Assembly (NCBI RefSeq): GCF_044647545.1
Contig: NZ_CP172818.1
Strand: one strand, 5' to 3'
Length of the DNA stretch: 64,000 nt
From: Escherichia coli
GTDB taxonomy: Bacteria > Pseudomonadota > Gammaproteobacteria > Enterobacterales > Enterobacteriaceae
Both the position numbers and the translations under genes were made by a program. This document shows positions 6,889 through 30,627 of this stretch, one piece after another. How positions within the stretch are numbered: the first letter of the stretch is position 1; every line of letters begins with the position of its first letter. Below the pieces are notes generated by a model that was not told the DNA's origin, made no database searches, and saw only the letters and a list, made by a program, of their open reading frames with translations.

Positions 6889-8119
6889 CTACGATAACCG
6901 CGCATTCAACATGGCTATCTGTTCGTCGTTCATGTCATCAATCCACATACCGTAAATTTCATACACCATCTGCGCAGTTTCATGCCCCATTTGGCTGGCT
7001 ATAAATGCCGGGTTCGCTCCTGCCGTCAACAGCCAGCAGGCAAAAGTATGCCGCGTATGGTACGGATTACGGCGGCGAATACCAGCACGTTTTACTGCTG
7101 CATTCCACCTTGCCCCCAAACTGCTTACCGAGTAATAAGGTTTTTGTTTTCCGTTACACACCCTGGGCATGAAAACAAAATGCAGTTTTTGCTTTTCGGT
7201 TCTGCATACTGCCGATAATAAAAGGTGACGACTTTTGCGATGATGCCCGGTCAGTTTGTATTGCTCCTTCAGTGCTTCAAGAGCAGGCTGCAGTAGTGTT
7301 ACTGTTCGGATCCCGGCATTTGTTTTTGGGGGACCGAACATATCGAGCCCTCGTCAGGTTTCTTCTGACATTCACTATTCCCTTTTCGAGATCCACATCC
7401 TCCCACGCCAGAGCTGCCAGTTCCCCGTGACGAAGTCCTGAGTAAACGGCAAAGTTCCACAAGTTCTCGCTATCTCCTTTTTCACTTTCCATTAATGCAT
7501 TGAATTCTGTTTTAGATAACGGATCAGGCTTTATTCTGTTCGCTGTAATTTTTTTACTCCTTCAAATGGTTTGGTTGATATAAATCCGACTGATACGCAA
7601 AACGCAACAGCGAACAGAGCAAGGCAATATCGTATCAACTGTGCGCACGGTTCTTCCTTTTTTGTTGGATCTTGGATTATCCAGGTAAAGCGTTTCTCCA
7701 TGCAGCAGTTCATTCCGGTAGTTTAAGATATCGCTATAACGAATATGTGATATCGGGGTACTTTCACAAATTATTATTCTGAGTGTTTTTAATTGTGATT
7801 TCGTTTTCTTCATTGTGTTTGTTGTTAACTCTGTCTCTTTAATTTTTGTCCAGATATCACAAAGCTCTCCGAACGTTTTTATGACTCTCGTTGTCACCAT
7901 TTTTGCCCCAGTGCTGGACTGGGGAAAACGTCTTAAATACTCAAATTCACCGGAGTTTATTTCATGAACTATCAGCGCTCTTAAATTTCCGGCCTTTTTA
8001 ATATTACTGTTTGTAATCTCCCAGCCTTTTAATGTTTCCCGACATCGTTTTCCTCGAAACATGAACCAGATGCGAATGTATCTACCTCTAATCTCGACAC
8101 CTGTTGGTAATTTAGACAT
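6889..8119 (-). pseudogene. intR: Tyrosine integrase, frame-disrupted in this sequence
   Basis: Integrase-like translation split over ORFs 6889..7341, 7277..7492, 7531..7713 and 7562..8119 in different frames. Confidence 0.75.
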
Positions 8120-8120
8120 A

Positions 8121-8336
8121 TCATGAGTCTTTGATAAACTGATTTATCTTTGGATAGTTGTACCAGATAATCCCTCGTTTGCTGTCTGGCTTACCTAAAG
8201 GAGATACTCGTTTGAAGTGGAAGCCCTCCACCCAACAGTTCTGGCGGTATGCTTCAATTTGTCTGGCCCCCAGACCAGTGCGAAGCATCAGGCCGTATTC
8301 AACCATCCACTCTTCATTAAAGATTACTTGTGCCAT
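8121..8336 (-). CDS. xisR: Excisionase-like protein
   Basis: 71-aa ORF ([10 protein letters not shown]...) immediately upstream of integrase, overlapping arrangement. Confidence 0.8.
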
Positions 8337-8414
8337 CGCATCACCTCTGGCAGGCGCCAATGTTAGACTGAAATTGACGCCCGATGTTGATTATTAATAA
8401 TCAGCTATGAAGTT

Positions 8415-8624
8415 TTAATTTGAATACAATGCAATTCTCGAGGACTGAAGTTTCTCGCAATTAAAATTTATCAGTTTTACTTTCTGCTCTCTGGAAACGC
8501 CTGCTTCTTTTTTACCTGAGAGCATTTTTTCGCATTCTGATTTCGTTAGTTTAGATTTTGAATATCTTGTCCAGTTAGTAGGAGTGCCACCTTCCTTTTC
8601 AATAGTGGCGGTAATTTTATACAT
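8415..8624 (-). CDS. ydaC: Rac prophage small protein YdaC
   Basis: ORF 8415..8696; likely start at internal ATG (MYKITATIEKEGG). Confidence 0.65.
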   Translation of the reverse strand: MYKITATIEKEGGTPTNWTRYSKSKLTKSECEKMLSGKKEAGVSREQKVKLINFNCEKLQSSRIALYSN

Positions 8625-8811
8625 GAACACCTCCATTATTATTTCCAGTGGTTCGTTTATTCCATCTTTCGAGTGCTTCTTTTTCACTTCCACCATAACC
8701 GGTTCGGGATTCGCATCCGTTACACTTCGCTCGGTAATATCCTGAAATGGCTTTCACCGTTACTGATGGACAACCACAAAATGGACATGGTTTAACATTG
8801 TCATATCTCAT
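8617..8811 (-). CDS. ralR: Restriction alleviation protein / type I toxin RalR
   Basis: 64-aa Cys-rich product (MRYDNVKPCPFCGCPS...CNGCES) within ORF 8617..8850. Confidence 0.85.
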   Translation of the reverse strand: MRYDNVKPCPFCGCPSVTVKAISGYYRAKCNGCESRTGYGGSEKEALERWNKRTTGNNNGGVHV

Positions 8812-8867
8812 AATTTTTCTCATAAAAAATATTTCAAGTTGGCGGTGCATTACACCGCCAGGCTGAA

Positions 8868-9677
8868 TTATTCCTCTGAATTATCGATTACACTGTATTC
8901 CCCGGTTAATACAGAGGAATCTGCAGGATCGATTGTCAGTGGTTCCTTTTCATCCATTGATACTGCACGCTGGATCTCAATTGATACGGGCAAATATTTG
9001 AACAGGCGACGAATAGCCGTTTTCTTTGCCATTTCTTCCCAGTGAGTTACCCACGGCCCGTTATTACCAGCTTTACTCAGGCTGCGCACCAGCTCAATCT
9101 GTTTGCGCGTCATAACTTCAAACTGAGTACCTCCGTCTTTCAGTCTTGCGACAGCATAGACGTGGGTAACCGGGGCATCTTCGTTTTCTCCCGGGCGGTG
9201 TATTAACTTTTCATCAAGGCCAAATTCGAAGCTAAACTCGTCACCTTCACGGACAACACGGGCTGACAGGCTGGCGATTTGACCAGAACGGCGAGCCAGA
9301 TCAATCATGCCGCGATAGCCAATGATTAGCTGAACGTTCTTTTTACCGCTCTTTTCGTTTTTATTACCAAAAGGCAGTAAATATGCATGACCGAGGGCGC
9401 TACCTGGCTCAAGTCCGAGCTGTGAACACTGTACGATCGCACTGACAAAACTCATAGTGTCACAGTTTCCTAACGCCGGAACTTTACGAATTTCTGTGGT
9501 GGCGATACGGATCATACGTTCAGCCGTCATATGGCGTGGAAGAGCTGCTGCCAGTTGCTCTTTCATTGATGGCTGGTTAATAAAACTAATCACGTCGCTA
9601 TTTTTAACTGCTGCTGGTGCACGGTTTCCCTGAGTTTTTTGCAGATCGGCTTTTGCGATTGGTGGTTGCTTAGTCAT
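8868..9677 (-). CDS. recT: Recombinase RecT (single-strand annealing protein)
   Basis: ORF 8868..9734; recalled RecT N-terminus [12 protein letters not shown] at internal ATG. Confidence 0.9.
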
Positions 9678-12312
9678 TTGCATATTCCTTAGCCCAGCGG
9701 GGCAGTGATAATGTCTTAATAGCTGGCCATTCATCGGTATTCAGGCAGTCAGACAGGGTTCGCAGATTGCGGTGATATTCCTGTTGACCTGCCAGTTTTG
9801 CTTCTTCGCCCATCATGAAAATTTCAACCGGATAACGTCCGCATTCAATAGTTGTGCTGGCAACCAGAAAAACGAAAGTTGGCTGCACTCCAAACTGTGC
9901 TTCATAACCGTCACTGTAGAATGCATCCTGAACGTGATAGCGGTAGTCGTAATAAGCGGTTTTGAATCGTTGAATATCCGCCGTAGTTTTCACGTCCATG
10001 ATCCAGTGAAATTCAGGGATAATTTTGTCCGGACGGCACCGACACAAAATTCCTGTTTCAGGATCTTCCCAGTAAATTGATGATTCAGCGTGTCCGGCGC
10101 TTTCAACAAGCCATTGCCCCAGCGGCAAAGCCATAACGCTTTGATACATGAGTTCAATTTTCCGGCCTTCTTCCGCAGTGATAACCGTTTTTCCTGTGCT
10201 TGCGCATTCCATCAGAAACGCTTTCTCTTCTTCTTTTCCGGCGTTTGTACGGCGGTTAAATTCAGGTGCTACGATAAAGCGGTTACTGAATTCTTCCGGT
10301 TCAAGTACCCGGCAGTGGAAAGCAGTTCCTAAATCGAGCGTTTTTGTCTTTGTGGTGTCCACGGGGGCATTTTTACGCCACAAATATAGTGCCGGAGTAT
10401 CAGCAATGTCATCGAGCTGAGACTTACTGATACCGGGACCCGCGTGGTAATTCTCATTCGAAATTCCGTAATAAATACCTGGCTCTATGTCTTCTACGAT
10501 TAAGGGATCTGACGCCTCGCCAGTTTCACTATCGCTGGCATGATGCTGATTGCTGCCAGTGTTCTCCTTGTGCTGATGCGCAGTGCCTTCCATTTCCTCC
10601 AGATCATTTTTCTGAACTTCAGGCTGATTCTCTCCATCGAATATTTCCTGGTATGTTGCGTCACCCATCACCGCACCACAATCAGGGCAGTTGCCGCCAC
10701 CGCTCTGACCGCAGGCGGTGCAGATCTTTTCCGGTTCCTGTTGCACTACTGGTTCAGGTTGTTTCGTTTCTGGCTCGTTTTGTTGCGTATTTGGGCTGTT
10801 TTGTTCCGCTTTCTGGTCGTTCTGTTCCGTTTCTTGCTGGTTCTGGTTCACAGAATCGCGGGTCTGGATCCCCTTAATCCATTTCGGATCATTCGGGTCG
10901 CTAATCCCTTCAACAAATTCACCACGTGATACTGCAAGCAGTTCATCGTCATCGACAGGATTTTTTGATGGAATGTTTTTCCGGGCTTCATGGAGTTCTG
11001 CCCGCAGTTCCTGATATTTCGCATCAACAGAATTTACCTGTGACTGAGCATCCAGCGGCTGCGTGTCCTGATGATGTTCAGTTGCGTCCGGTTCCATTGT
11101 TTCAGCCTCTCCCTGTTCAACTGCCGTTGTTCCAGATGGTTGCGGTTTTTCTTCATCATCCTGTTTTCCTTCTTCTGTTACTCGCTGCGGCATCGGGGCA
11201 GAGGAGCGACCGCAGGCAATATCCACGATTTCCGGATCAGGGTTGGCATGATCGGTTTCAGTCAGTACTTTGTTCAGATATTCAGTGACGTGCGCGGGGA
11301 TGACCTCGATCCCAATTGGTGCTTCTTTTACGGACGCAACCACGATGGCGCGGGAATAATCCAGCCCGCCAGGCATGGTGATGAATTTGTCGCGGAAAAC
11401 AGAAAAGGGCGGTTTATTTTCAGCGATAATTTCCTCAATGCGTTTAGCGTGTGCCGGATGAAGGTTATAGATGTCCAGATCCATTGAACGGGCCAGTACG
11501 CCAGTGGCTACGTCGCGCGCCAGTGACGTCAGATCGTGTACGAAACCTTCGCCGCGATCGGTGAGGTTTCCGCCGCCAGCATTAGCACCGGAAGCCGTGC
11601 GAGTGATGTGTGAAACACGATTACCCTTCATCCACTCTTTTGTCAGCAGTCCTCGATCGGTGTAGTCAGCGTTCAGGTATGCTTCGAAAAAAGCAGTTAT
11701 CAGTCCCAGGTTTGAATTACCAGGATTAGGGAAAACTTTGTCAGTGTCACGAACCAGTTTGTGGAGTTCGCGAATTTCCAGCGGGTCGAGCAGGCTGGTT
11801 TTGTGGGAAACAGCCAGGGCAGTAACAGCCGGTAGTTCTTCAGCCCGAGCAATGTGTAATGCCTGGAGTCCGTCGCGTGAAACGTGCGTTACCGGTTTTT
11901 CGCTGCCGTGTTGAGCAAGCCAACGAATGGGCAGTTCCTGGCCAGAAATTGGGAGTAGCATATTCTCCTCAATCTCAGTCATGTCTTCGCCGTTGACGTT
12001 GGTATTGCCTTGATAGTGAGCGTTGTCTGGTGCTGCTCCCGGTTTTAGTTCCCATGTCATGGAGTCTTTGCTGAGTTGATAGCGTTCACTCCAGGTAAAA
12101 TCGATCTCACCTTCAGCGGGCAGGTCATTAACGACAGGAAAATTCGTGGCAACAGCTTTAAAATAGCTGCTCAGTTTTTTACCTGACTTAACGATCAGGT
12201 AGTCCAGAGTGGCACAGGTCGATTCAAAATCGTTGCTTGCCCACAGGACGACGTCAGGTTCACCGGATGATTTTTTCGCTTTCCGTAACAGGAAGAGTGG
12301 TTTTGTGCTCAT
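9670..12312 (-). CDS. recE: Exonuclease VIII RecE
   Basis: 880-aa ORF ending ...[11 protein letters not shown]; low-complexity acidic/Gln-rich middle region; overlaps recT start. Confidence 0.9.
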
Positions 12313-16908: not shown

Positions 16909-17655
16909 ATGAAAAATATTGCGACAGGCGATGTTCTTGAACGTATCCGCAGACTGGCCCCGTCACATGTAACCGCGCCATTCAAGACGGTAGCGGAGTG
17001 GCGCGAGTGGCAACTTTCCGAAGGCCAGAAACGTTGTGAGGAGATCAACCGTCAGAATCGTCAGTTGCGGGTGGAAAAAATTCTGAATCGCTCTGGCATC
17101 CAGCCATTGCACCGCAAATGCTCGTTTTCGAATTACCAGGTGCAGAACGAAGGGCAGCGATACGCGTTGAGTCAGGCGAAATCCATCGCTGATGAACTGA
17201 TGACCGGGTGTACAAATTTTGCGTTCAGCGGAAAACCTGGTACCGGGAAGAACCACTTAGCGGCAGCTATCGGGAATCGCCTGCTGAAAGACGGTCAGAC
17301 AGTGATTGTGGTTACCGTGGCTGATGTTATGAGTGCCCTGCACGCCAGCTATGACGATGGGCAGTCAGGCGAAAAATTTTTGCGGGAACTGTGCGAAGTG
17401 GATCTGCTGGTTCTTGATGAAATTGGCATTCAGCGCGAGACGAAAAACGAGCAGGTGGTACTGCACCAGATTGTTGATCGCCGGACAGCGTCGATGCGCA
17501 GCGTGGGGATGCTGACAAACCTGAACTATGAGGCCATGAAAACATTGCTCGGCGAGCGGATTATGGATCGCATGACCATGAACGGCGGGCGATGGGTGAA
17601 TTTTAACTGGGAGAGCTGGCGTCCGAATGTCGTCCAGCCAGGAATTGCGAAGTAA
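16909..17655 (+). CDS. ydaV: DnaC-like helicase loader YdaV
   Basis: 248 aa; Walker [16 protein letters not shown], Walker B LLVLDEIG. Confidence 0.88.
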
Positions 17656-17677
17656 TTTTTACCGGGAGAAAAATTTA

Positions 17678-18199
17678 ATGGAGACTGTTTTTGACGCACT
17701 GAAAGCAATGGGAAAAGCCACATCCATAGAACTTGCTGCGCGACTTGATATCAGTCGTGAAGAAGTGCTGAACGAACTATGGGAACTGAAAAAGGCTGGT
17801 TTTGTTGATAAAAGCGCGTACACCTGGCGTGTGGCTGATAACAATGTTCAGCAGGAACAGCCAGCGCAGGCAGAACTGCCGGAAGAAATCACCACAGCAA
17901 CAGTAGCGAAAATCTCAGAGTGCGATTTAACCGCGACGATTGAACAACGAGGACCACAAACGGCTGATGAGCTGGCTACATTGTTTGGTACCACATCACG
18001 CAAAGTGGCTTCAACGCTGGCAATGGCAATCAGCAAAGGTCGTCTGATTCGCGTAAATCAGGGCGGTAAATTTCGTTACTGCATACCGGGCGATAATTTA
18101 CCAGCAGAGCCGAAAGCAGCATCGGTATCTCCGCTCTGGTTATCTGCATCATCGTCTGCCTGTCATGGGCTGTTAATCATTACCGTGATAACGCCATGA
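17678..18199 (+). CDS. ydaW: Putative winged-helix DNA-binding protein YdaW (possibly remnant)
   Basis: ATG with gggag SD at 17678; 3' end overlaps Rz-like frame. Confidence 0.5.
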
Positions 18200-18570
18200 C
18201 CTACAAAGAGCAGCGCGATAAAAAAGTCAGTGAGCTGAAGCAGGCGACTGCCACCATTACTGACATGCAGCAGCGCCAGCGTACTGCTGATGCACTTGAT
18301 GCTAAATACACGAAGGAGTTAGCTGATGCGAAAGCTGAAAATGATGCTCTGCGTGATGATGTTGCCGCTGGTCGTCGTCGGTTGCACATCAAAGCAGTCT
18401 GTCAGTCAGTGCGTGAAGCCACCACCGCCTCCGGCGTGGATAATGCAGCCTCCCCCCGACTGGCAGACACCGCTGAACGGGATTATTTCACCCTCCGGGA
18501 ACGACTGGTAATGATGCAGGCCCAACTTGAAGGTGCTCAGCAATACATAACCGAGCAGTGTTTAAAGTAA
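18100..18570 (+). pseudogene. rzpR: Rz-like i-spanin remnant (no ATG at the lambda-Rz-equivalent N-terminus)
   Basis: Frame encoding ...[36 protein letters not shown]... resembles lambda Rz; ORF track lists only 18196..18570. Confidence 0.65.
18326..18511 (+). CDS. rzoR: Rz1-like o-spanin lipoprotein, embedded in rzpR in +1 frame
   Basis: 61 aa; lipobox LVVVGC; proline-rich ([15 protein letters not shown]). Confidence 0.7.
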
Positions 18571-18707
18571 AATCTTAACTACAATATGATTCATTTTGAT
18601 GATTGTTTCATAAGGAACAGTGAAGTAAGATCTAAGAGGAGTTAAATTTTATACAGTATAATCATAATATTGCAGCAAGGTGGTTATAATTGAAAGAATA
18701 TTTAGAT

Positions 18708-20165
18708 ATGAATACATCTCATGTAAGAGTTGTTACTCATATGTGTGGGTTCCTGGTTTGGCTCTATAGTCTTTCAATGTTGCCACCAATGGTTGTAGCA
18801 TTGTTTTATAAAGAAAAAAGCCTGTTTGTTTTCTTTATAACTTTCGTTATATTTTTTTGCATTGGTGGCGGAGCGTGGTATACAACTAAGAAATCTGGCA
18901 TTCAATTACGTACCCGTGATGGGTTTATTATAATTGTAATGTTTTGGATTTTGTTTTCTGTTATTAGTGCATTCCCTTTATGGATTGACTCAGAACTTAA
19001 TTTAACGTTCATTGATGCTCTGTTTGAAGGGGTTTCTGGAATAACAACAACAGGAGCAACTGTAATTGATGATGTTAGTTCATTACCTCGGGCATATTTG
19101 TACTATCGGTCACAGTTAAATTTTATAGGTGGTTTAGGAGTTATTGTTCTGGCGGTTGCTGTATTGCCATTATTGGGTATTGGTGGTGCAAAGCTTTATC
19201 AGTCAGAAATGCCGGGGCCATTTAAGGATGACAAACTCACTCCCCGCCTGGCCGATACGTCACGGACACTGTGGATAACTTATTCTTTATTAGGTATTGC
19301 TTGTATTGTCTGTTATAGACTTGCAGGAATGCCTTTGTTTGATGCTATTTGTCACGGGATTTCCACAGTTTCGCTTGGTGGTTTCTCAACTCATAGCGAG
19401 AGTATCGGATATTTTAATAACTATTTGGTTGAGCTGGTGGCTGGTTCTTTTTCCCTGCTATCGGCTTTCAACTTCACTCTTTGGTATATTGTTATTAGCA
19501 GGAAAACGATAAAACCTTTAATCAGAGATATTGAACTTCGTTTCTTTCTGTTAATAGCCTTAGGGGTGATCATTGTTACCTCTTTCCAGGTCTGGCATAT
19601 AGGTATGTATGACTTGCATGGAAGTTTTATTCATTCGTTTTTTCTTGCCAGCTCCATGCTCACTGATAATGGTTTAGCTACGCAGGATTATGCAAGTTGG
19701 CCCACGCACACGATAGTGTTTTTGCTGTTGTCAAGTTTCTTTGGGGGATGTATAGGTTCAACTTGTGGTGGAATTAAGTCACTTCGATTTCTTATACTTT
19801 TCAAACAAAGCAAACACGAGATAAATCAGCTTTCTCATCCCAGAGCGTTGTTGAGTGTAAATGTAGGAGGGAAGATAGTTACAGATCGTGTAATGAGGTC
19901 TGTATGGAGTTTCTTTTTTCTTTATACTCTCTTCACGGTGTTTTTTATACTGGTGTTAAATGGTATGGGATATGATTTTCTTACATCATTTGCAACAGTG
20001 GCTGCATGTATTAATAATATGGGATTAGGTTTTGGGGCTACTGCATCGTCATTCGGAGTGCTTAATGACATTGCAAAATGCTTAATGTGCATAGCTATGA
20101 TTCTTGGTCGCCTTGAAATTTATCCTGTTATTATATTGTTTTCAGGTTTTTTTTGGCGCTCCTAA
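18708..20165 (+). CDS. trkG: Potassium uptake protein TrkG (TrkH paralog)
   Basis: 485 aa from internal ATG (MNTSHVRV); multi-pass membrane protein; AT-rich. Confidence 0.9.
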   Translation: MNTSHVRVVTHMCGFLVWLYSLSMLPPMVVALFYKEKSLFVFFITFVIFFCIGGGAWYTTKKSGIQLRTRDGFIIIVMFWILFSVISAFPLWIDSELNLTFIDALFEGVSGITTTGATVIDDVSSLPRAYLYYRSQLNFIGGLGVIVLAVAVLPLLGIGGAKLYQSEMPGPFKDDKLTPRLADTSRTLWITYSLLGIACIVCYRLAGMPLFDAICHGISTVSLGGFSTHSESIGYFNNYLVELVAGSFSLLSAFNFTLWYIVISRKTIKPLIRDIELRFFLLIALGVIIVTSFQVWHIGMYDLHGSFIHSFFLASSMLTDNGLATQDYASWPTHTIVFLLLSSFFGGCIGSTCGGIKSLRFLILFKQSKHEINQLSHPRALLSVNVGGKIVTDRVMRSVWSFFFLYTLFTVFFILVLNGMGYDFLTSFATVAACINNMGLGFGATASSFGVLNDIAKCLMCIAMILGRLEIYPVIILFSGFFWRS

Positions 20166-20302
20166 TATATGGCTGATTTATAATTGTGAGTTTAATATTA
20201 TGTTGACTCACTCATTGATCCAATACCTAACTTTACCAGCAACACCTCCGTCCCCAGTAGCACTGGCTGCTGGGGTGCGTTTTATTCATAAAGCAAGGCT
20301 GT

Positions 20303-20566
20303 ATGAGCGAGAAATTAAAGATAGTCTATCGCCCATTACAAGAATTGTCACCGTATGCGCACAACGCCAGGACGCACAGTACTGAGCAGGTGGCACAACT
20401 GGTAGAAAGTATTAAGCAATTCGGCTGGACTAATCCGGTGCTGATTGACGAAAAGGGCGAAATTATTGCGGGTCACGGTCGTGTTATGGCGGCTGAAATG
20501 CTCAAAATGGATTCTGTTCCGGTCATTGTTCTGTCTGGCCTGACGGATGAGCAGAAGCAGCGATAA
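20303..20566 (+). CDS. ynaK: ParB-like nuclease-domain fragment protein YnaK
   Basis: 87 aa with ParB N-terminal-like motif (GHGRVMAA). Confidence 0.75.
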   Translation: MSEKLKIVYRPLQELSPYAHNARTHSTEQVAQLVESIKQFGWTNPVLIDEKGEIIAGHGRVMAAEMLKMDSVPVIVLSGLTDEQKQR

Positions 20567-20906
20567 CGATCAGTATCGCTCCCGTAATGCATTAATCCGT
20601 CGCCACATTGAGAAAATGGATGCCAGTTTGCACGTCGGAACGAAGGAGTTTGATATTTCAAAGGTTTCCGAGGTGGATTCTGTTGATGATTTACTCATTG
20701 ATAATGCCGCTCGTTATCTGCTGAAAGACTGGAAAGGGGTTGGTGAACTGGTTAATGGTGTTGAGGTTGCACTGGAATATACGGCAGAACGAGGGATCGC
20801 GCTGCTTAAGCAGAATCCAGAGTTGTACTGGCAGATCCTTGCAGAAGCAGCCAGCATCGCCCAGGGTAAAGAGCAGCAGAAGCAGGATACGATAAAAAAG
20901 CCATAG
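20547..20906 (+). pseudogene. ydaY: Prophage gene remnant YdaY
   Basis: 119-aa ORF overlapping ynaK end; no recognisable complete domain. Confidence 0.5.
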
Positions 20907-20980
20907 CTGCCCAGCGGTGGTTATCGGAGTTCGGGGGAGAAAGGGGGGAAAAGGCAAGATGGAAGCGAGAAAAACTCAGG

Positions 20981-21214
20981 TTGCCACCGATACCGGAACC
21001 AGAAATAGACCCGGTGCTTAAGGAGTTGTTGTACGCCTATTCGGTAATATCCCGTGCCCGACGTTATGCTGGAATGGCTGGGGTGCCTTTGCCTTTATCT
21101 CTGACAGAGATAAATGAATATTTAGCCACTCATCCGGTATTGATTGAGCGCGATGAATTTGAAGCAGTGATCTTTGCACTGGATGACCAGTATTTTCAGG
21201 AGCAGTGTGTGTAG
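20981..21214 (+). CDS. Phage-related small ORF, possible tail-assembly fragment (uncertain)
   Basis: 77-aa ORF immediately upstream of tape-measure fragment. Confidence 0.3.
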   Translation: MPPIPEPEIDPVLKELLYAYSVISRARRYAGMAGVPLPLSLTEINEYLATHPVLIERDEFEAVIFALDDQYFQEQCV

Positions 21215-21379
21215 TTGTTAATTACGTACACTCTGTTACAGAGATGTGATGGTGTCTTTAATTAAATCGATGATGCTCCTGGAGAAAAGCATTGCGTGGC
21301 CTCGTAATCGCTATATCTACTATTATGTCGCCTGAAACCCACTTCGCGGTGGGTTTTTTGTTGTCAGGAGTTTTAATAA

Positions 21380-22408
21380 ATGGCAGAGCAAACCTCGCGT
21401 CTCGCAATAATTATTGATAGCACTGGAGCGAAAAATAATGCTGACAATCTGACCTCCTCATTAGTCAAAATGACGCAGGCTGGGGAAACTGCTGCAAATA
21501 GCGCAGGGAAAGTGACTAAGGCAACAGAAGATGAGAAGAACGCGCTCGCAAAATTAAAAGCAGCTATTGATCCAGTTGGTGCCGCAATTGATACTGTCGG
21601 TCGACGCTATTCTGAATTAAAGAAATTTTTCGATAAAGGGCTTATTGATAAAGAAGAATATGAATTTCTTGTCCGTAAACTTAATGAAACCACAGAGGAA
21701 TTGAGCGGGGTTGCGCAAGCGCAGAGAGAAGCCGAGAAGGCCGGAAAACTTGCTGCCGCTCAGCAGGAAGCGCAGGCTCAGGCCTTTCAAAGAATGCTGG
21801 ACAAGATCGACCCTCTGGCTGCGGCGCTAAGAAATCTTGAACAACAGCATGATGAACTTAATGCTGCGTTTGCATCCGGGAAAATAAATGGTTCTCAGTT
21901 TGAGAATTATAGCCGAAAAATACAGGAAACACGGCGAGAGCTTACCGGAGAGGCTCAGGCAGAGCGAGAAGCAGCAAAAGCGCATGATGAACAGGTTGTT
22001 GCTTTGCAACGTCTGATTGCTCAACTTGATCCTGTCGGAACTGCTTTTAATCGTCTGGTAGAACAACAGAAACAGCTCAATGAAGCAAAAGCTAAGGGGA
22101 TGCTTTCTCCTGAAATGTATGAGGAGCTTTCTGGAAAACTTCGTGCTATGCGGAGTGAGCTTGAGGTTACTCAATCACAATTAAGCAAAACCGGAATGTC
22201 GGCAAAACAAACGGCTTTTGCTATGCGCATGTTGCCTGCACAAATGACGGATATTGTTGTTGGGTTGTCCACTGGTCAGTCGCCATTTATGGTGTTAATG
22301 CAGCAGGGCGGCCATTCAGCTATGCAGGAGACAAGAATCGCCAGCTTACCCGTTACAGCGATACCCGCTGGCATGAAGATTCAGTGCGTAACCGCTGGTT
22401 CAGCATGA
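21380..22408 (+). pseudogene. tmpR: Tail tape-measure protein, N-terminal fragment
   Basis: 342-aa coiled-coil-rich ORF typical of tape-measure N-termini; far too short for a full TMP. Confidence 0.7.
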
Positions 22409-23974: not shown

Positions 23975-26900
23975 ATGGCAGCAGTAAAAATCTCAGGTGT
24001 GCTGAAAGATGGTGCGGGAAAACCAATACAGAACTGCACTATTCAACTGAGGGCAAAGCGTAACAGCACCACGGTACTGGTGAACACGGTGGCCTCTGAA
24101 AATCCGGATGAAGCCGGGCGTTACAGCATGGATGTTGAGTATGGCCAGTACAGCGTCACCCTGCTGGTTGAAGGTTTTCCGCCTTCACATGCCGGAACCA
24201 TTACCGTCTATGAAGGTTCCAGACCAGGTACGCTGAATGATTTTCTCGGTGCCATGACGGAAGATGATGTCATGCCGGAGGCATTGCGTCGTTTTGAGGC
24301 AATGGTGGAAGAAGCGGCACGCAACGCGTCCGCGGTGGCACAGAACACGGCAGCCGCGAAGAAGTCAGCCAGTGATGCCAGCACATCAGCCCGTGAGGCG
24401 GCAACCCATGCGGCTGATGCTGCGGACTCAGCACGCGCAGCCAGCACGTCAGCCGGACAGGCCGCGTCGTCGGCTCAGTCAGCGTCTTCCAGCGCAGGAA
24501 CGGCATCAACAAAGGCCACTGAAGCATCAAAAAGTGCTGCCGCTGCAGAGTCCTCAAAAAGCGCGGCGGCCACCAGTGCCGGTGCGGCGAAAACGTCAGA
24601 AACGAATGCTTCAGCGTCACTACAATCAGCAGCCACATCTGCATCCACCGCGACCACGAAGGCATCAGAAGCTGCGACCTCGGCCCGGGATGCGGCGGCC
24701 TCAAAAGAAGCGGCAAAATCATCAGAAACGAACGCATCATCAAGCGCCAGTAGTGCAGCTTCCTCGGCAACGGCGGCAGGAAATTCCGCGAAGGCGGCAA
24801 AAACGTCCGAGACGAACGCCAGGTCTTCTGAAACGGCAGCGGGACAGAGCGCCTCGGCTGCGGCAGGCTCAAAAACAGCGGCTGCGTCGTCTGCCAGTGC
24901 AGCGTCAACAAGTGCCGGGCAGGCCTCAGCCAGTGCCACCGCCGCCGGAAAATCGGCAGAAAGCGCCGCATCGTCTGCTTCAACAGCCACAACGAAGGCT
25001 GGCGAAGCCACTGAACAGGCCAGCGCAGCAGCGAGGTCTGCTTCCGCAGCGAAGACATCCGAAACGAACGCGAAAGCGTCGGAAACAAGCGCAGAATCCT
25101 CAAAAACGGCTGCCGCATCGTCAGCCAGTTCGGCGGCGTCATCGGCATCATCGGCGTCTGCTTCAAAAGATGAGGCGACCAGACAAGCGTCAGCAGCGAA
25201 GAGCAGCGCCACGACGGCATCCACGAAGGCGACAGAGGCTGCTGGCAGTGCGACGGCGGCAGCTCAGAGCAAAAGTACGGCGGAATCCGCGGCAACGCGC
25301 GCCGAGACAGCAGCTAAACGGGCAGAGGATATTGCATCCGCCGTGGCGCTTGAGGATGCAAGTACGACGAAAAAGGGGATAGTACAGCTCAGCAGTGCGA
25401 CCAACAGTACGTCTGAAACGCTGGCGGCAACGCCAAAGGCAGTAAAATCAGCCTATGACAATGCAGAGAAACGTCTGCAGAAAGACCAGAACGGCGCTGA
25501 TATACCCGATAAGGGATGCTTCCTGAACAACATTAACGCGGTCAGTAAAACAGACTTTGCTGATAAGCGTGGTATGCGTTATGTGCGGGTTAACGCTCCT
25601 GCAGGTGCAACATCTGGAAAATATTACCCTGTTGTTGTTATGCGTTCTGCTGGCTCAGTAAGCGAACTGGCATCAAGAGTCATTATCACCACGGCAACGC
25701 GAACCGCAGGCGATCCGATGAATAACTGCGAGTTTAACGGATTTGTTATGCCTGGTGGCTGGACTGACAGGGGGCGTTATGCTTATGGCATGTTCTGGCA
25801 ATATCAAAACAATGAACGAGCCATTCACTCAATAATGATGAGTAATAAGGGCGATGATTTGCGCTCTGTGTTCTATGTTGATGGCGCTGCTTTCCCTGTT
25901 TTTGCGTTTATTGAAGATGGCCTGTCAATATCCGCACCTGGTGCTGATCTCGTTGTTAATGATACGACCTATAAGTTTGGGGCAACAAATCCGGCGACTG
26001 AATGTATCGCGGCGGACGTTATCCTTGATTTTAAGAGTGGGCGTGGTTTTTATGAGTCTCATTCGTTAATCGTTAACGATAACTTGTCGTGCAAAAAACT
26101 TTTTGCCACAGACGAAATTGTAGCGCGTGGTGGTAATCAGATTCGAATGATAGGTGGGGAGTATGGTGCATTATGGCGTAATGATGGCGCTAAAACTTAC
26201 CTGCTGCTTACCAATCAAGGTGATGTTTATGGTGGCTGGAATACATTAAGACCGTTTGCTATTGATAACGCAACCGGCGAACTGGTTATTGGAACCAAAC
26301 TGTCCGCAAGTCTGAACGGTAATGCATTAACAGCAACAAAGCTGCAAACGCCAAGACGGGTTTCTGGTGTTGAGTTTGATGGTTCCAAAGATATTACTTT
26401 AACCGCCGCGCATGTGGCTGCTTTTGCCAGAAGGGCAACGGATACATATGCCGATGCGGATGGTGGCGTTCCATGGAATGCCGAATCTGGCGCTTACAAT
26501 GTCACCCGCTCTGGCGACAGCTATATTCTGGTTAACTTCTATACCGGAGTCGGAAGTTGCCGGACCCTGCAGATGAAGGCGCATTACAGAAATGGTGGTC
26601 TGTTCTACCGTTCTTCAAGAGACGGTTATGGTTTTGAGGAAGACTGGGCAGAAGTTTATACCTCGAAAAATCTTCCACCAGAAAGCTACCCAGTCGGCGC
26701 ACCAATCCCGTGGCCATCAGATACGCCACCTGCAGGTTATGCAATCATGCAGGGGCAGACGTTTGATAAGGCAGCATATCCGAAACTGGCTATTGCCTAT
26801 CCTTCTGGTGTTATTCCAGATATGCGCGGCTGGACAATCAAGGGCAAACCCGCCAGTGGTCGGGCCGTATTGTCTCAGGAACAGGATGGCATTAAATCGC

Positions 26901-27340
26901 ACACCCACAGTGCCAGCGCATCCAGTACGGATTTGGGTACGAAAACCACATCGTCGTTTGATTACGGTACTAAATCAACGAATAACACAGGTGCACATAC
27001 CCACAATGTATCTGGTACTGCAAATAGTGCTGGCGCACATACTCATACCGTTCCATTAAGGAGACCAAACAGTGGCGGTATGAATTTCGACTGGCTGGAT
27101 GGTTCATCAAGTGGCACGGTGGTGGGGAATGGAACTGTGCCTTCTTCTGGCGCACATACCCACTCAGTATCAGGTACCGCTACAAGTGCTGGGGCACATG
27201 CACACACTGTTGGTATTGGCGCTCATACGCACTCTGTTAAGATTGGTTCACATGGACACACCATCACCGTTAACGCTGCTGGTAACGCGGAAAACACCGT
27301 TAAAAACATCGCATTTAATTATATTGTGAGGCTTGCATAA
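23975..27340 (+). CDS. stfR: Side tail fiber protein
   Basis: ~1121 aa; Ala/Ser/Thr-rich repeats in the middle, HxH repeats near the C-terminus. Confidence 0.9.
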
Positions 27341-27915
27341 TGGCATTCAGAATGAGTGAACAATCACGTACCGTAAAAATTTATAACCTGCTGGCCGGAA
27401 CTAATGAGTTTATTGGTGAAGGTGACGCATATATTCCACCTCATACAGGGCTGCCAGCTAATTCTACAGATATCGCCCCACCGGAAATTCCTGCTGGCTT
27501 TGTGGCAGTTTTTAACAGTGAAAATGAATCGTGGAATATTGTTGAAGACCATCGTGGTAAAACGGTCTATGACGTGGCGTCGGGGGACGCATTGTTTATT
27601 TCTGAACTCGGACCGCTACCAGAGAATGTCACCTGGTTGTCGCCAGCAGGGGAGTATCAGAAGTGGGACGGCGTATCCTGGGTGAATGATGAGGAAGCAG
27701 AAAAACTGTTTCGGATACGGGAAGCGGAAGAAAGAAAAAGCAACCTGATGCAGGTAGCCAGTGAGCATATTGCGCCGCTTCAGGATGCTGCAGATCTGGA
27801 AATTGCAACGGAGGAAGAAACCCCGTTGCTGGAAGCATGGAAAAAGTATCGGGTATTGCTGAACCGTGTTGATACGTCAACTGCACAGGATATTGAATGG
27901 CCAGCACTGCCGTAG
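27340..27915 (+). CDS. tfaR: Tail fiber assembly protein
   Basis: 191-aa ORF start-overlapping stfR stop; Tfa-like. Confidence 0.85.
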
Positions 27916-28012
27916 GGTAAAACATATAAATTCTATAATTAGATGTATCTTTCCATTTACGGCAAGGAAGGGGGCTTGGAAGACGTAAAGCATCTCACAC
28001 CGAGATTATTTT

Positions 28013-28603
28013 TTATATGTCAGGTGTCTGAAGTTTTGCTTTGGCTCTTAAAATGGTTTGCCGCGAGGTTTTGAATTCCCGGGCAATGGCACTTATACTT
28101 ACACCTGACTTAATTCGTTCGAATACCACCTGTTTCTGTTCTTCATTTAACACAGGTGGTCGACCAAAACGTTTCCCTGCGCCGCGGGCTCTTACTATCC
28201 CGGAATGAGTGCGTTCAAGTAAAAGGTCTCGTTCAAATTCAGCGACTGCTGAAATTACTTGCATCATCATTTTTCCTGTTGGACTGGTCAGGTCAATGCC
28301 ACCCAATGCTAAGCAATGCACTCTGATACCTGTTTCGGTCAGTTGTTCCACTGTTTTCCTGATATCCATTGCATTACAACCAAGGCGATCCAGTTTTGTC
28401 ACAATCAATTGATCACCACATTTCAGGCGAGCAAGCAACCGGTTAAAACCAGGACGCTCACTGGTTGCTGCTGAGCCGCTAATGTGTTCTTCGATTATTT
28501 GCTGAGGTTTGATTTTAAAACCTGCACTTTCGATTTCCCGGCGTTGATTTTCGGTGGTCTGATCCAGCGTTGATATCCGACAGTAAGCAAAAATTCGAGA
28601 CAT
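28013..28603 (-). CDS. pinR: Serine recombinase / DNA invertase (Pin/Gin/Hin family)
   Basis: 196 aa; N-terminal catalytic Ser region (YCRISTLDQ); C-terminal HTH. Confidence 0.9.
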
Positions 28604-28919
28604 AGTGAGACTCTATACGAAATTGGTGTTCATATCATAATGCATCTCAGAAAATAATTATGATTATTTTTGTGCATATTTGTATGTACACGTTCGAAAA
28701 TAAACGAATGCGTATGCAACCCCGTAATTTTGGTGAGACCCAAAATCGATTTTGTGAAAAAAGGCTTTAACTCGGTTTGTTTTTCGAGTTCCGGGCGGAC
28801 TCAAGGAAGAAGAATAGTGTTGCGTGTTATTTTAACCAGATTTCAAGTTGTTTGGTCGTGGAAAAGTGGAGCAAAATGTTGTTAAAGTGGAAAAATGATA
28901 AAAAAGTAAGTTTATTATA

Positions 28920-29153
28920 TTACATTTTACCATTTAAATTTTGGTTGTCTTTAAGAACTGATATCGCTGTTTGTAATAATTCTTTGTTATCCAGCCATGA
29001 TTTTTTCTTTATGTTTCCTTCAATGTAATCAAGCAATGTTCTGGTATTGATAGGTCTTCCCTGTTTTGCTACTTCCACTACAGCATCCCCTAGGATAATT
29101 CTTACTTCAGGAAGCTGCGCAGGGAACCACTTTAGGGTGTCTTTTGATTTCAT
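28920..29153 (-). CDS. ynaE: Rac prophage protein YnaE (YdfK-like)
   Basis: 77-aa product from internal ATG (MKSKDTLKWF...) of ORF 28920..29258. Confidence 0.75.
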   Translation of the reverse strand: MKSKDTLKWFPAQLPEVRIILGDAVVEVAKQGRPINTRTLLDYIEGNIKKKSWLDNKELLQTAISVLKDNQNLNGKM

Positions 29154-29882
29154 GAAGATATTCCTTAAAATATTATTGATTTTCATTGCGATATTGTATG
29201 TCTGATTCAGGATATGTTGACTTATACATCGGTTTTGTCTGGTTATTGGATATGCCAATCCCTAATTTTATTAGAGCATGACTAAAAATGCTGAATATGA
29301 TAAGGAGCGAAGTGATTATCAGTATGCTGTTCATATAGCCTCGAATTAGTAATGTGTTATATATGATATAGTTGACAATTTTTATCCTGGGTGTTCTTAA
29401 AGTTCGTAGATAAACATTGTCGTTTCAGGTATACAGGAATGCTAACAGGTGGCGGCAAAAATCAGGCGGTTTATGGCGCAAGCTGAAGTGGCAACTGCAA
29501 ACTATCTTATGCAGAGACTCTACACGGATTGGGTTTAAAAGTATACATAGATAACAGTTTTTATCTGAAGAAGAAAAATATCAAGGTGATATAGCCTATA
29601 TGCCTTTGATGCGGAGGAATGAATGTGATGGGAGTGATGTATCTGAATAGTTGAAAAACCGCAGTCACGTCGTATGCAAGAACGTGCTGCGGTTGGTTTG
29701 ACTTTGATTGAGACGTTTTGGAATTTTTTTCGGTGGCAAAAATGGGGCAAAACGCTGCAAAAGGGGCAAAAAAGGGGCAAAAAAAGAGTGGATTATCGTA
29801 GCTTATTGTTGTCGCTGATGATATTTAACACATTGAAAAATAAGTAAAATACTTATGAGTCAGAGAGTTGTGATTTTTGCCC

Positions 29883-29936
29883 TTACTTGTTCAGGTTGTA
29901 TTGTTCTTTCTTACTAATTTCTTGATTTTGCGACAT
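29883..29936 (-). pseudogene. ttcC: Remnant of displaced original ttcA 5' end
   Basis: ATG at ~29936 reads [17 protein letters not shown] then stop at the att repeat boundary. Confidence 0.5.
29887..29929. repeat. Prophage attachment-site core repeat, distal copy
   Basis: Identical 43 bp to 6788..6830. Confidence 0.75.
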
Positions 29937-30111
29937 TTAAAAGCGACTCAATTCGTTATATGGCATCAGAAGAGTATGCGTCATGCCGGAACGCCCAGCA
30001 TAAGAAATCTGATATAAAAACTGTGGCGTGTATGGTACGGATTAGAGGGGAAAATGTCAGCACATTTGCGAAATGAATCAAAAAGCCCGCAGCAATGTGC
30101 GGGCGTTAGTG

Positions 30112-30627
<516 letters not shown>

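Follow-up and report, generated by a model that had tools for sequence, protein, structure and literature searches.

trkG of the Escherichia coli Rac prophage as a probable AT-rich, self-contained cargo cassette

The moron concept, which reportedly goes back to Hendrix and colleagues, is classically illustrated among the lambdoid phages by bor and lom of phage lambda, the former occupying the slot just downstream of Rz, ahead of the packaging genes. The trkG gene of the Rac prophage resembles this type of moron in being a compositionally distinct extra gene that has a terminator-like hairpin as well as a promoter of its own and is expressed while the prophage is repressed (the promoter and the expression of trkG are published, and its hairpin is predicted), and it shares with bor the position just downstream of Rz. 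However, trkG encodes a 491-aa housekeeping-type ion transporter, and not a small surface or virulence protein such as those specified by bor and lom. It also differs from both in that its cassette shares the strand of the late genes, and no sibling phage without trkG was found.

Other described systems are close to trkG in function or in history. Vibrio parahaemolyticus TrkH, whose structure is available alone (3PJZ) and in complex with TrkA (4J9U), belongs, like TrkG, to the PF02386 family, and the two could be aligned over residues 13-491 of the 491 of TrkG. E. coli TrkH is a further member of this family; enterobacterial TrkH shares about 41% identity with TrkG, and the need of Na+ for K+ uptake is a property of TrkG (PMC9898762). 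The argF gene of the cryptic prophage CP4-6 is, like trkG, a core-gene paralogue residing in a cryptic prophage and provided with its own constitutive promoter, but argF has been treated as a duplicate or transposed copy of argI (PMC5811629), whereas trkG belongs to a clade distinct from trkH.

The analysed window, by which we mean the whole stretch of 64 kb of DNA, was chromosomal DNA of E. coli, running from abgR and ttcA onwards, in which the Rac prophage resides. The gene at 18690..20165 on the plus strand is trkG, encoding the membrane subunit through which the Trk uptake system translocates K+, and it was found as an intact reading frame of 491 aa when read from a TTG codon, the RefSeq and K-12 annotation starting at ATG 18708 and giving 485 aa. 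Its product matched the Pfam TrkH profile (PF02386) with 484 bits against a cut-off of 27, in a match that extended over residues 46-489 of the protein and positions 3-500 of the 502 in the profile, and the closest solved structures were those of Vibrio TrkH (3PJZ and 4J9U, E=1e-120). Work by Schlosser et al. from 1991 and 1995 is reportedly associated with trkG (b1363) of the K-12 Rac prophage. The window and K-12 MG1655 could be aligned end to end over 40 kb, with 98.1-98.2% identity and a patchy distribution of differences: the chromosomal flanks diverged by about 1.5-2%; the Rac stretches at 8-10 kb, 11-18 kb and 19-22 kb were identical; and recE, the ydaW/Rz junction, stfR/tfaR and intR were the parts of Rac that differed. 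Across 18560-20310, which includes the trkG leader, gene and trailer, there were 0 differences from K-12 MG1655, the whole cassette being the same base for base, and a search with 18571-20302 recovered K-12 strains at 100% identity. Since this region is identical in K-12, the published work on K-12 trkG applies to it directly.

The order of the Rac genes was collinear with that of K-12 (intR, recET, racR, ydaS-V, trkG, stfR, tfaR, pinR), which bears out the reading of trkG as prophage cargo that a preliminary description of this DNA had offered. The K-12 prophage further agrees with the window in the remnants of rzpR and ynaK that flank trkG, in the deletions around the gene and in having IS5 within lomR. 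The left neighbour (18196..18570, plus strand) is a truncated Rz i-spanin gene, the rzpR remnant, with 124 aa, a GC content of 0.525 and a Pfam Phage_lysis match of 169 bits, as against 154 aa in intact relatives. The right neighbour (20303..20566, plus strand) is a truncated ParB/Srx-like ynaK with 87 aa, a GC content of 0.481 and a ParB_N domain, whose homologue has 263 aa in intact relatives. As in K-12, one deletion runs from mid-ydaW to Rz, with loss of Q, S and R, and another from ynaK to the tape-measure gene; trkG was intact despite these losses around it.

The arrangement from which these remnants derive is visible in two intact relatives (L002 and L012), one a predicted prophage deposited as Escherichia phage vB_EcoS-683R6 and the other residing in the chromosome of a wild E. 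coli; the "phage" records that contain trkG are PHASTER-predicted prophages and not isolated virions. In both of them S, R and Rz directly precede trkG, and the intact order is Q, tRNA-Thr, tRNA-Gly, S, R, Rz, trkG, parB, two small genes and terminase, the full-length ynaK homologue of L002 being followed by the terminase genes. The trkG slot is thus the junction between lysis and packaging genes and, as judged from this gene order, late transcription should cross trkG.

The most conspicuous property of trkG is its base composition. The gene had a GC content of 0.378-0.381, with 0.32 at third codon positions (GC3), and its leader (18571-18689) was as low as 0.27, whereas the neighbouring genes reached 0.527 (ydaV), 0.525 (Rz remnant), 0.481 (truncated ynaK) and 0.472 (ydaY). 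Over 2 kb on either side of the cassette the GC content was 0.518 (left) and 0.466 (right), in comparison with 0.374 for the cassette and 0.49 for the whole window, so that the cassette is AT-rich relative to its host (0.37-0.38, leader 0.27). GC3 was 0.50-0.61 in the adjacent intact genes and in the Rz and ynaK remnants, and only 1.5% of 1458-bp segments in the 64 kb were as GC-poor as trkG. The transitions were sharp, at about 18570 and at 20200-20300, the composition shifting within tens of bases. The greater A/T-richness of trkG that the preliminary description had reported was thus confirmed, and the comparison of codon usage that it had suggested likewise set the gene apart: the synonymous codon usage of trkG differed both from that of the chromosomal flanks (G=236, p=3e-29) and from that of the Rac genes taken together (G=106, df 41, p=1e-7).

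Because T-rich codons are common in genes for membrane proteins, the amino acid content was controlled for in this comparison. When the amino acids of TrkG were encoded with the synonymous codons of the chromosomal flanks, the expected GC was 0.466 and the expected GC3 was 0.54, and with the synonymous codons of the other Rac genes the corresponding values were 0.439 and 0.47. The low GC content of trkG is therefore not merely the composition of a membrane protein. The window contained three AT-rich islands, at 7.4-9.0 kb, 18.3-20.4 kb (trkG) and 27.8-30.4 kb, and small Rac genes such as rcbA (0.348), ydaE (0.368), sieB (0.372) and ynaE (0.355) were equally AT-rich, for which reason low GC alone does not single trkG out.

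The unit that comprises leader, gene and trailer could be delimited at 18573..20313 (plus strand), a cassette of 1.74 kb that is kept together across phage backbones. A query joining Rz and leader to trailer and ParB, representing the empty site, found 0 of 5426 E. coli genomes at a coverage of at least 80%, and the phage collection held no sibling with Rz directly beside this ParB, the ParB module always occurring with trkG. Since no empty site was found, the edges were taken from a UTI89 prophage and from a second backbone. The UTI89 prophage lacks trkG, and its homology to the window reached approximately the stop codon of Rz and was lost after about 18573, its slot between Rz and terminase holding other cargo (DUF1398 and ynfO) instead. 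On the right, five IMG/VR loci with a different packaging module (L046, L049, L050, L054 and L056) showed homology to be lost at about 20306-20319, after the first 11-17 nt of the next gene; their cassettes were 97-99% identical and lay upstream of a Terminase_2 small subunit and Phage_portal_3, with no ParB. The same cassette, at 97-100% identity, thus precedes two packaging modules, one with ParB and terminase and the other with Terminase_2 and Phage_portal_3. These explicit edges and the occurrence in two backbones are a modest refinement of what was known about trkG.

The signals that such a cassette may carry were predicted at the level of consensus matches. The AT-rich leader (18571..18689, plus strand) included a perfect -10 hexamer, TATAAT, at 18657-18662, and the alignment showed this hexamer ahead of the E. 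fergusonii homologue as well. A second candidate, a promoter-like site matching the consensus, was seen at 18561-18590. However, the promoter consensus scan gave no more sites than shuffled sequence (7 versus 7.9), and the promoter claim for trkG accordingly rests on the literature. An Rfam scan of 17000-22000 at E<=1 returned no match, indicating that the leader contains no riboswitch or known sRNA. Downstream of the gene, a putative terminator-like G+C-rich hairpin was called by the terminator scan at 20249..20285 (plus strand), with a stem at 20252-20275 followed by TGCGTTTTAT, a short and interrupted U-tract, the terminator call being at consensus level. The hairpin has an RNAfold energy of -22.5 kcal/mol and lies 87 nt past the trkG stop codon, just before ynaK, and the trailer bearing it was 99-100% identical wherever it was complete (37 of 46 IMG/VR loci).

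The activity of this promoter, the binding and repression by H-NS, and the transport function are published for the identical K-12 sequence. By genomic SELEX, Yamamoto et al. (2018, PMC5811629) found a constitutive RpoD (sigma-70) promoter at trkG, one of the few located inside prophages, and described the gene as inserted together with its promoter. Tanudjaja et al. (2022, PMC9898762) noted the contrast between the 38% GC of trkG and the 53% of trkH, together with the location of trkG in rac, and considered the gene horizontally acquired. In the same study, performed in K-12, the upstream region of trkG drove a lux reporter, and qRT-PCR was used; trkG mRNA increased in an hns deletion strain and when hns and stpA were both mutated, in keeping with ChIP-chip results obtained earlier. 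TrkG mediated Na+-dependent K+ uptake and also some Na+ uptake, neither of which was found for TrkH, both proteins depended on TrkA, and a trkG deletion strain had no growth phenotype under the stress conditions tested (PMC9898762). Moreover, trkG was present in two H-NS ChIP target lists and was 3.8-fold up on overproduction of SlyA (Curran et al. 2017, PMC5797941), so that the H-NS ChIP data suggested as a check by the preliminary description are available and include the locus. That description had also considered trkG likely to be silenced by nucleoid proteins. The binding of H-NS and the derepression in its absence agree with this proposal (PMC5797941, PMC9898762), but silencing is too strong a word: the repression is partial, the gene being "downregulated but not completely silenced", expressed at approximately the level of trkH and functional (PMC9898762). 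Within the cassette, the high-affinity H-NS motif TCGATAAATT was not enriched (74th percentile, with 4 sites when up to 2 mismatches were allowed), which makes this motif scan uninformative.

Of the 5426 complete E. coli genomes searched, 1550 (29%) carried the cassette, nearly always as a single copy, and 1515 of the 1554 matching records from these 1550 genomes were at least 99% identical. In IMG/VR, a scan with clade-invariant peptides located 46 trkG loci, all of them at least 96% identical, and Rz was upstream in each of the 45 loci that include the 5′ end of trkG. Outside this group, the protein search found the nearest relatives in E. fergusonii (79% identity), Citrobacter (77%) and Pectobacterium (75%), followed by Pantoea, Enterobacter, Leclercia, Cronobacter, Buttiauxella, Serratia and Xenorhabdus (61-73%); regarding the donor, it gave no relative above 79% amino acid identity. 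The contexts of six homologues were examined and proved to be unrelated, mutually different, non-prophage places: the E. fergusonii gene adjoins porin genes, that of Pectobacterium follows ychF, that of Enterobacter lies between a ygiQ-like gene and ftsP-parC, that of Xenorhabdus is between lipB and ybeD, that of Serratia marcescens is in a P4-like island, and that of Buttiauxella is found among accessory genes. Some of these homologues have the GC content of their hosts (0.567 vs 0.573 in Enterobacter, 0.435 vs 0.446 in Xenorhabdus), and others, such as that of Pectobacterium (0.428 vs 0.505), are AT-rich in comparison with theirs. The closest relatives had GC contents of 0.42-0.43 and none was as AT-rich as trkG, so that part of the AT-richness of trkG may postdate its capture. 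Since all phage-borne copies found are at least 96% identical and the nearest relatives occupy non-phage loci, these data point to one capture, and a single capture by a Rac-like phage ancestor from an AT-rich enterobacterial source is the simplest reading that fits them. Because no relative without the cassette was found, we infer this capture, the insertion itself not having been seen; the nature of the donor and a function in lysogenic conversion are suggested in the same manner. Altogether, trkG is very probably an AT-rich, self-contained cargo cassette, or moron, within a Rac-type lambdoid prophage. The separate acquisition as a moron that had been proposed at the outset is supported by the sharp GC steps, the delimited 1.74-kb cassette, the relatives of 61-79% identity in non-phage loci and the published promoter of its own (PMC5811629, PMC9898762).

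Two other origins were considered for trkG. According to the first, its AT-richness would reflect the codons of a hydrophobic protein and the general AT bias of phage accessory genes, trkG being an old part of Rac. The low GC1 and GC2 of the gene (0.42 and 0.40) are as anticipated for a protein rich in Phe, Ile and Leu, the amino acid content alone brings the expected GC down to 0.44-0.47, several Rac genes are as AT-rich, and the failure to find a sibling phage without trkG points in the same direction. However, the GC3 control largely refutes this explanation, as trkG has 0.32 where 0.47-0.54 would be expected, and the native paralogue trkH has 53% GC (PMC9898762). The change of composition within tens of bases at the cassette edges, the recurrence of the cassette in two backbones and the existence of relatives in non-phage loci are also against it, and we regard it as very unlikely. 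Less credible still, to the point of being hardly tenable, is that trkG would be a prophage-acquired duplicate of the host trkH, after the manner of argF and argI in CP4-6. It is true that trkG has been called closely related to trkH, with the analogy to argF being drawn (PMC5811629), and that both proteins work with TrkA (PMC9898762), but TrkG has only about 41% identity to the enterobacterial TrkH proteins, as opposed to 61-79% to the second Trk genes of other Enterobacterales, which form a clade of their own, and the GC contents are far apart (38% against 53%, PMC9898762). The identity values exclude a recent duplication of trkH.

A different matter is whether trkG, however it was acquired, serves the phage itself. 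The statement in the preliminary description that trkG has no role in phage biology is an assumption. Given that intact Rac-like phages have the cassette within their late region, TrkG could be a late protein, acting in Na+-coupled K+ retention during holin and spanin action or in phage exclusion, a proposal that we consider improbable. In its broader form, trkG would not be purely a lysogenic-conversion gene, and its product would be made from the late region in lytic growth, for instance to retain K+ while the envelope is compromised. This is equally doubtful, even though trkG is on the same strand, in the interval from Rz to terminase and downstream of Q, where late transcription would have to cross it, and even though at least 99% identity is kept in the great majority of the E. 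coli genomes that carry it. On the other hand, a constitutive promoter belongs to trkG itself, and the gene is active in a prophage devoid of Q and the late promoter (PMC5811629, PMC9898762), and the trkG deletion strain grew normally under the stress conditions tested (PMC9898762). Moreover, the gene is intact and apparently under purifying selection in defective prophages that are unable to grow lytically. Five of five E. coli alleles compared were intact and differed from the window by 21 synonymous and 8 non-synonymous changes, corresponding to a pN/pS of about 0.11, which is approximate given the small number of sequences, and this polymorphism is consistent with purifying selection. Intact alleles and a low pN/pS, with truncated phage genes on both sides, fit a gene that selection in the host retains.

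The moron reading would imply the following history. A Rac-like phage ancestor would have captured, once and from an AT-rich enterobacterial source, a unit of 1.7 kb consisting of a promoter-bearing leader, the gene and the terminator-like hairpin, and this unit would have been inserted where the lysis cassette (S-R-Rz) meets the packaging genes. It would then have travelled with the phage lineage to the approximately 29% of complete E. coli genomes in which it is now found. In the lysogen, trkG would be transcribed from its own sigma-70 promoter, H-NS, together with StpA, would bind its AT-rich DNA and lower transcription without abolishing it, and TrkG would pair with the host TrkA for Na+-dependent K+ uptake beside the native TrkH. 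In the window, as in K-12, deletions have removed most of the phage genes around trkG and spared trkG itself.

A literature search on trkG as a moron, on its TTG start or on its xenogeneic nature yielded nothing relevant. That trkG is foreign, has a promoter of its own and is partly repressed by H-NS can be found in the literature, which makes it an ordinary feature: the earlier interpretation was correct and had been established before, partial repression being the sole correction to it. The edges of the cassette, its occurrence in two backbones, the indications of a single capture and the start codon discussed below are small additions, refinements and not a new kind of thing. As an AT-rich gene carried by a prophage (Rac), adopted by the host and tempered by H-NS, trkG is a textbook case, and it matters little beyond this confirmation.

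The start codon of trkG is probably not the one that is annotated. The TTG/ATG start context remarked upon in the preliminary description is real, TTG 18690 being located six in-frame codons upstream of ATG 18708. A Shine-Dalgarno sequence, AAGGTGG (18677..18683, plus strand), precedes the TTG by 6 nt, and its predicted duplex with the anti-Shine-Dalgarno sequence has -7.7 kcal/mol, a value within the top 2.7% of random positions of the window, compared with -0.9 before ATG 18708. The N-terminus extended upstream of the E. coli Met1 in 10 of 16 aligned homologues, and nine of these ten (with 491 aa) begin exactly at the position of the TTG; in all ten, the E. coli Met1 is replaced by I, L, F, H, V or S. 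The Pectobacterium homologue starts with TTG after GGGAG and the Enterobacter homologue with GTG, and in E. fergusonii the arrangement GGAGG-TATAA-TTG is found in frame, six codons upstream of the annotated ATG. It was also observed that the 491-aa form is already annotated in one deposited prophage record. Published data sets were consulted on this point. In the INRI-seq data for E. coli K-12, 0 footprints were recorded at the annotated trkG ATG in five of five replicates, the template being abundant (1586 CPM) and 74% of annotated starts being detected, and no alternative trkG start was called; however, no more than 12 nt of the synthetic template precede the TTG, for which reason these data do not bear on it. 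The TRAINSPOTTER N-terminomics data had no trkG entry. With a strong Shine-Dalgarno sequence and a start conserved at the same place in the homologues, TTG 18690 appears better supported than ATG 18708, and we favour, with some reserve, the view that translation begins at the TTG, six residues upstream of the annotated Met, and that the standard annotation is wrong. This start is far more likely than a role of trkG in lytic growth and, if true, would change the N-terminus to be used in expression constructs and in structural work.

The trkG cassette, which comprises the leader, the gene and the trailer (about 18573-20313), was also found in front of another packaging module. In five IMG/VR loci (L046, L049, L050, L054 and L056), the same cassette was located upstream of a module composed of Terminase_2 and Phage_portal_3, without ParB. 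These loci retained the initial 11-17 nt of ynaK (ATGAGCGAGA...), the truncated ParB-like gene that is the right neighbour of trkG in the window, followed by stop codons in frame; in L046, the stretch concerned is at about 7470-7630.

Homologues of the TrkG clade occurred in other genera as single genes flanked by conserved core genes. In the Enterobacter cloacae complex, the gene (L008, 8001-9476) was found between a ygiQ-like gene and ftsP-plsC-parC, and in Xenorhabdus poinarii (L011, 8001-9461) it was placed between lipB and ybeD-dacA. Since the GC content of both genes is in line with that of their hosts, the second Trk gene seems to have been resident in Enterobacter and Xenorhabdus for a long time.

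The homologues also bear on the trkG start codon. In the region 18677-18710, a Shine-Dalgarno sequence was absent before the annotated ATG at 18708, whereas a strong one preceded the in-frame TTG at 18690. This position corresponded to the start in homologues, being a TTG in Pectobacterium and a GTG in Enterobacter, and the E. fergusonii homologue harbored an in-frame TTG at the same position, which was unannotated. The standard trkG annotation of 485 aa may be 6 residues too short.

Within E. coli, two double-nucleotide codon changes separated the trkG allele shared by K-12 and the window from the other alleles compared. Numbering from the TTG, codon 336 (19695-19697) encodes S in K-12 and the window and was changed in three of the four divergent alleles (S336N), while codon 464 (20079-20081) encodes C and was changed in all four (C464Y). 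In the E. coli complete-genome collection, plasmid-typed records held 15 of the 1557 trkG places, which may represent assembly artefacts, phage-plasmids or integrated prophage fragments.

As for the Rac prophage itself, the integrase gene intR (6889-8119, minus strand) is broken. Relative to K-12, it presented several single-base indels, at about 7205, 7229-7231, 7348, 7539, 7586 and 7633, and was broken up into ORFs of 150, 71, 60 and 185 aa. With intR disrupted by these indels, the prophage in the window should no longer be able to excise by means of the integrase that it encodes. Part of intR also lies in one of the two further AT-rich islands of the window, defined by a GC content of 0.40 or less over 1.46 kb. 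This island occupied the left end of Rac (7359-9038; intR, xisR, rcbA and ralR); the other, at the right end (27766-30394), included pinR, ynaE and the junction region. Nowhere else in the window was the DNA as AT-rich as in this second island, where GC fell to a minimum of 0.357.

The comparison of positions 1-40000 with K-12 revealed a mosaic of identity, in which the chromosomal flanks were 1.5-2% different and identity reached 100% in the Rac segments at 8-10, 11-18 and 19-22 kb; both sequences also have the IS5 insertion in lomR. This pattern suggests that lineages have recently exchanged Rac DNA, instead of each having simply inherited it vertically; among complete RefSeq E. coli genomes, none matched better than K-12 strains. 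At 10-11 kb, 69 differences and small indels formed a cluster (10500-10800) in recE, whose ORF (9670-12312) remained intact, with 2643 nt versus 2601 nt in K-12. The densest divergence was found in the tail-fibre genes stfR and tfaR (24000-28000), with 49, 43 and 145 differences per kb and many indels near 27.0-27.15 kb, a pattern typical of a host-range cassette.
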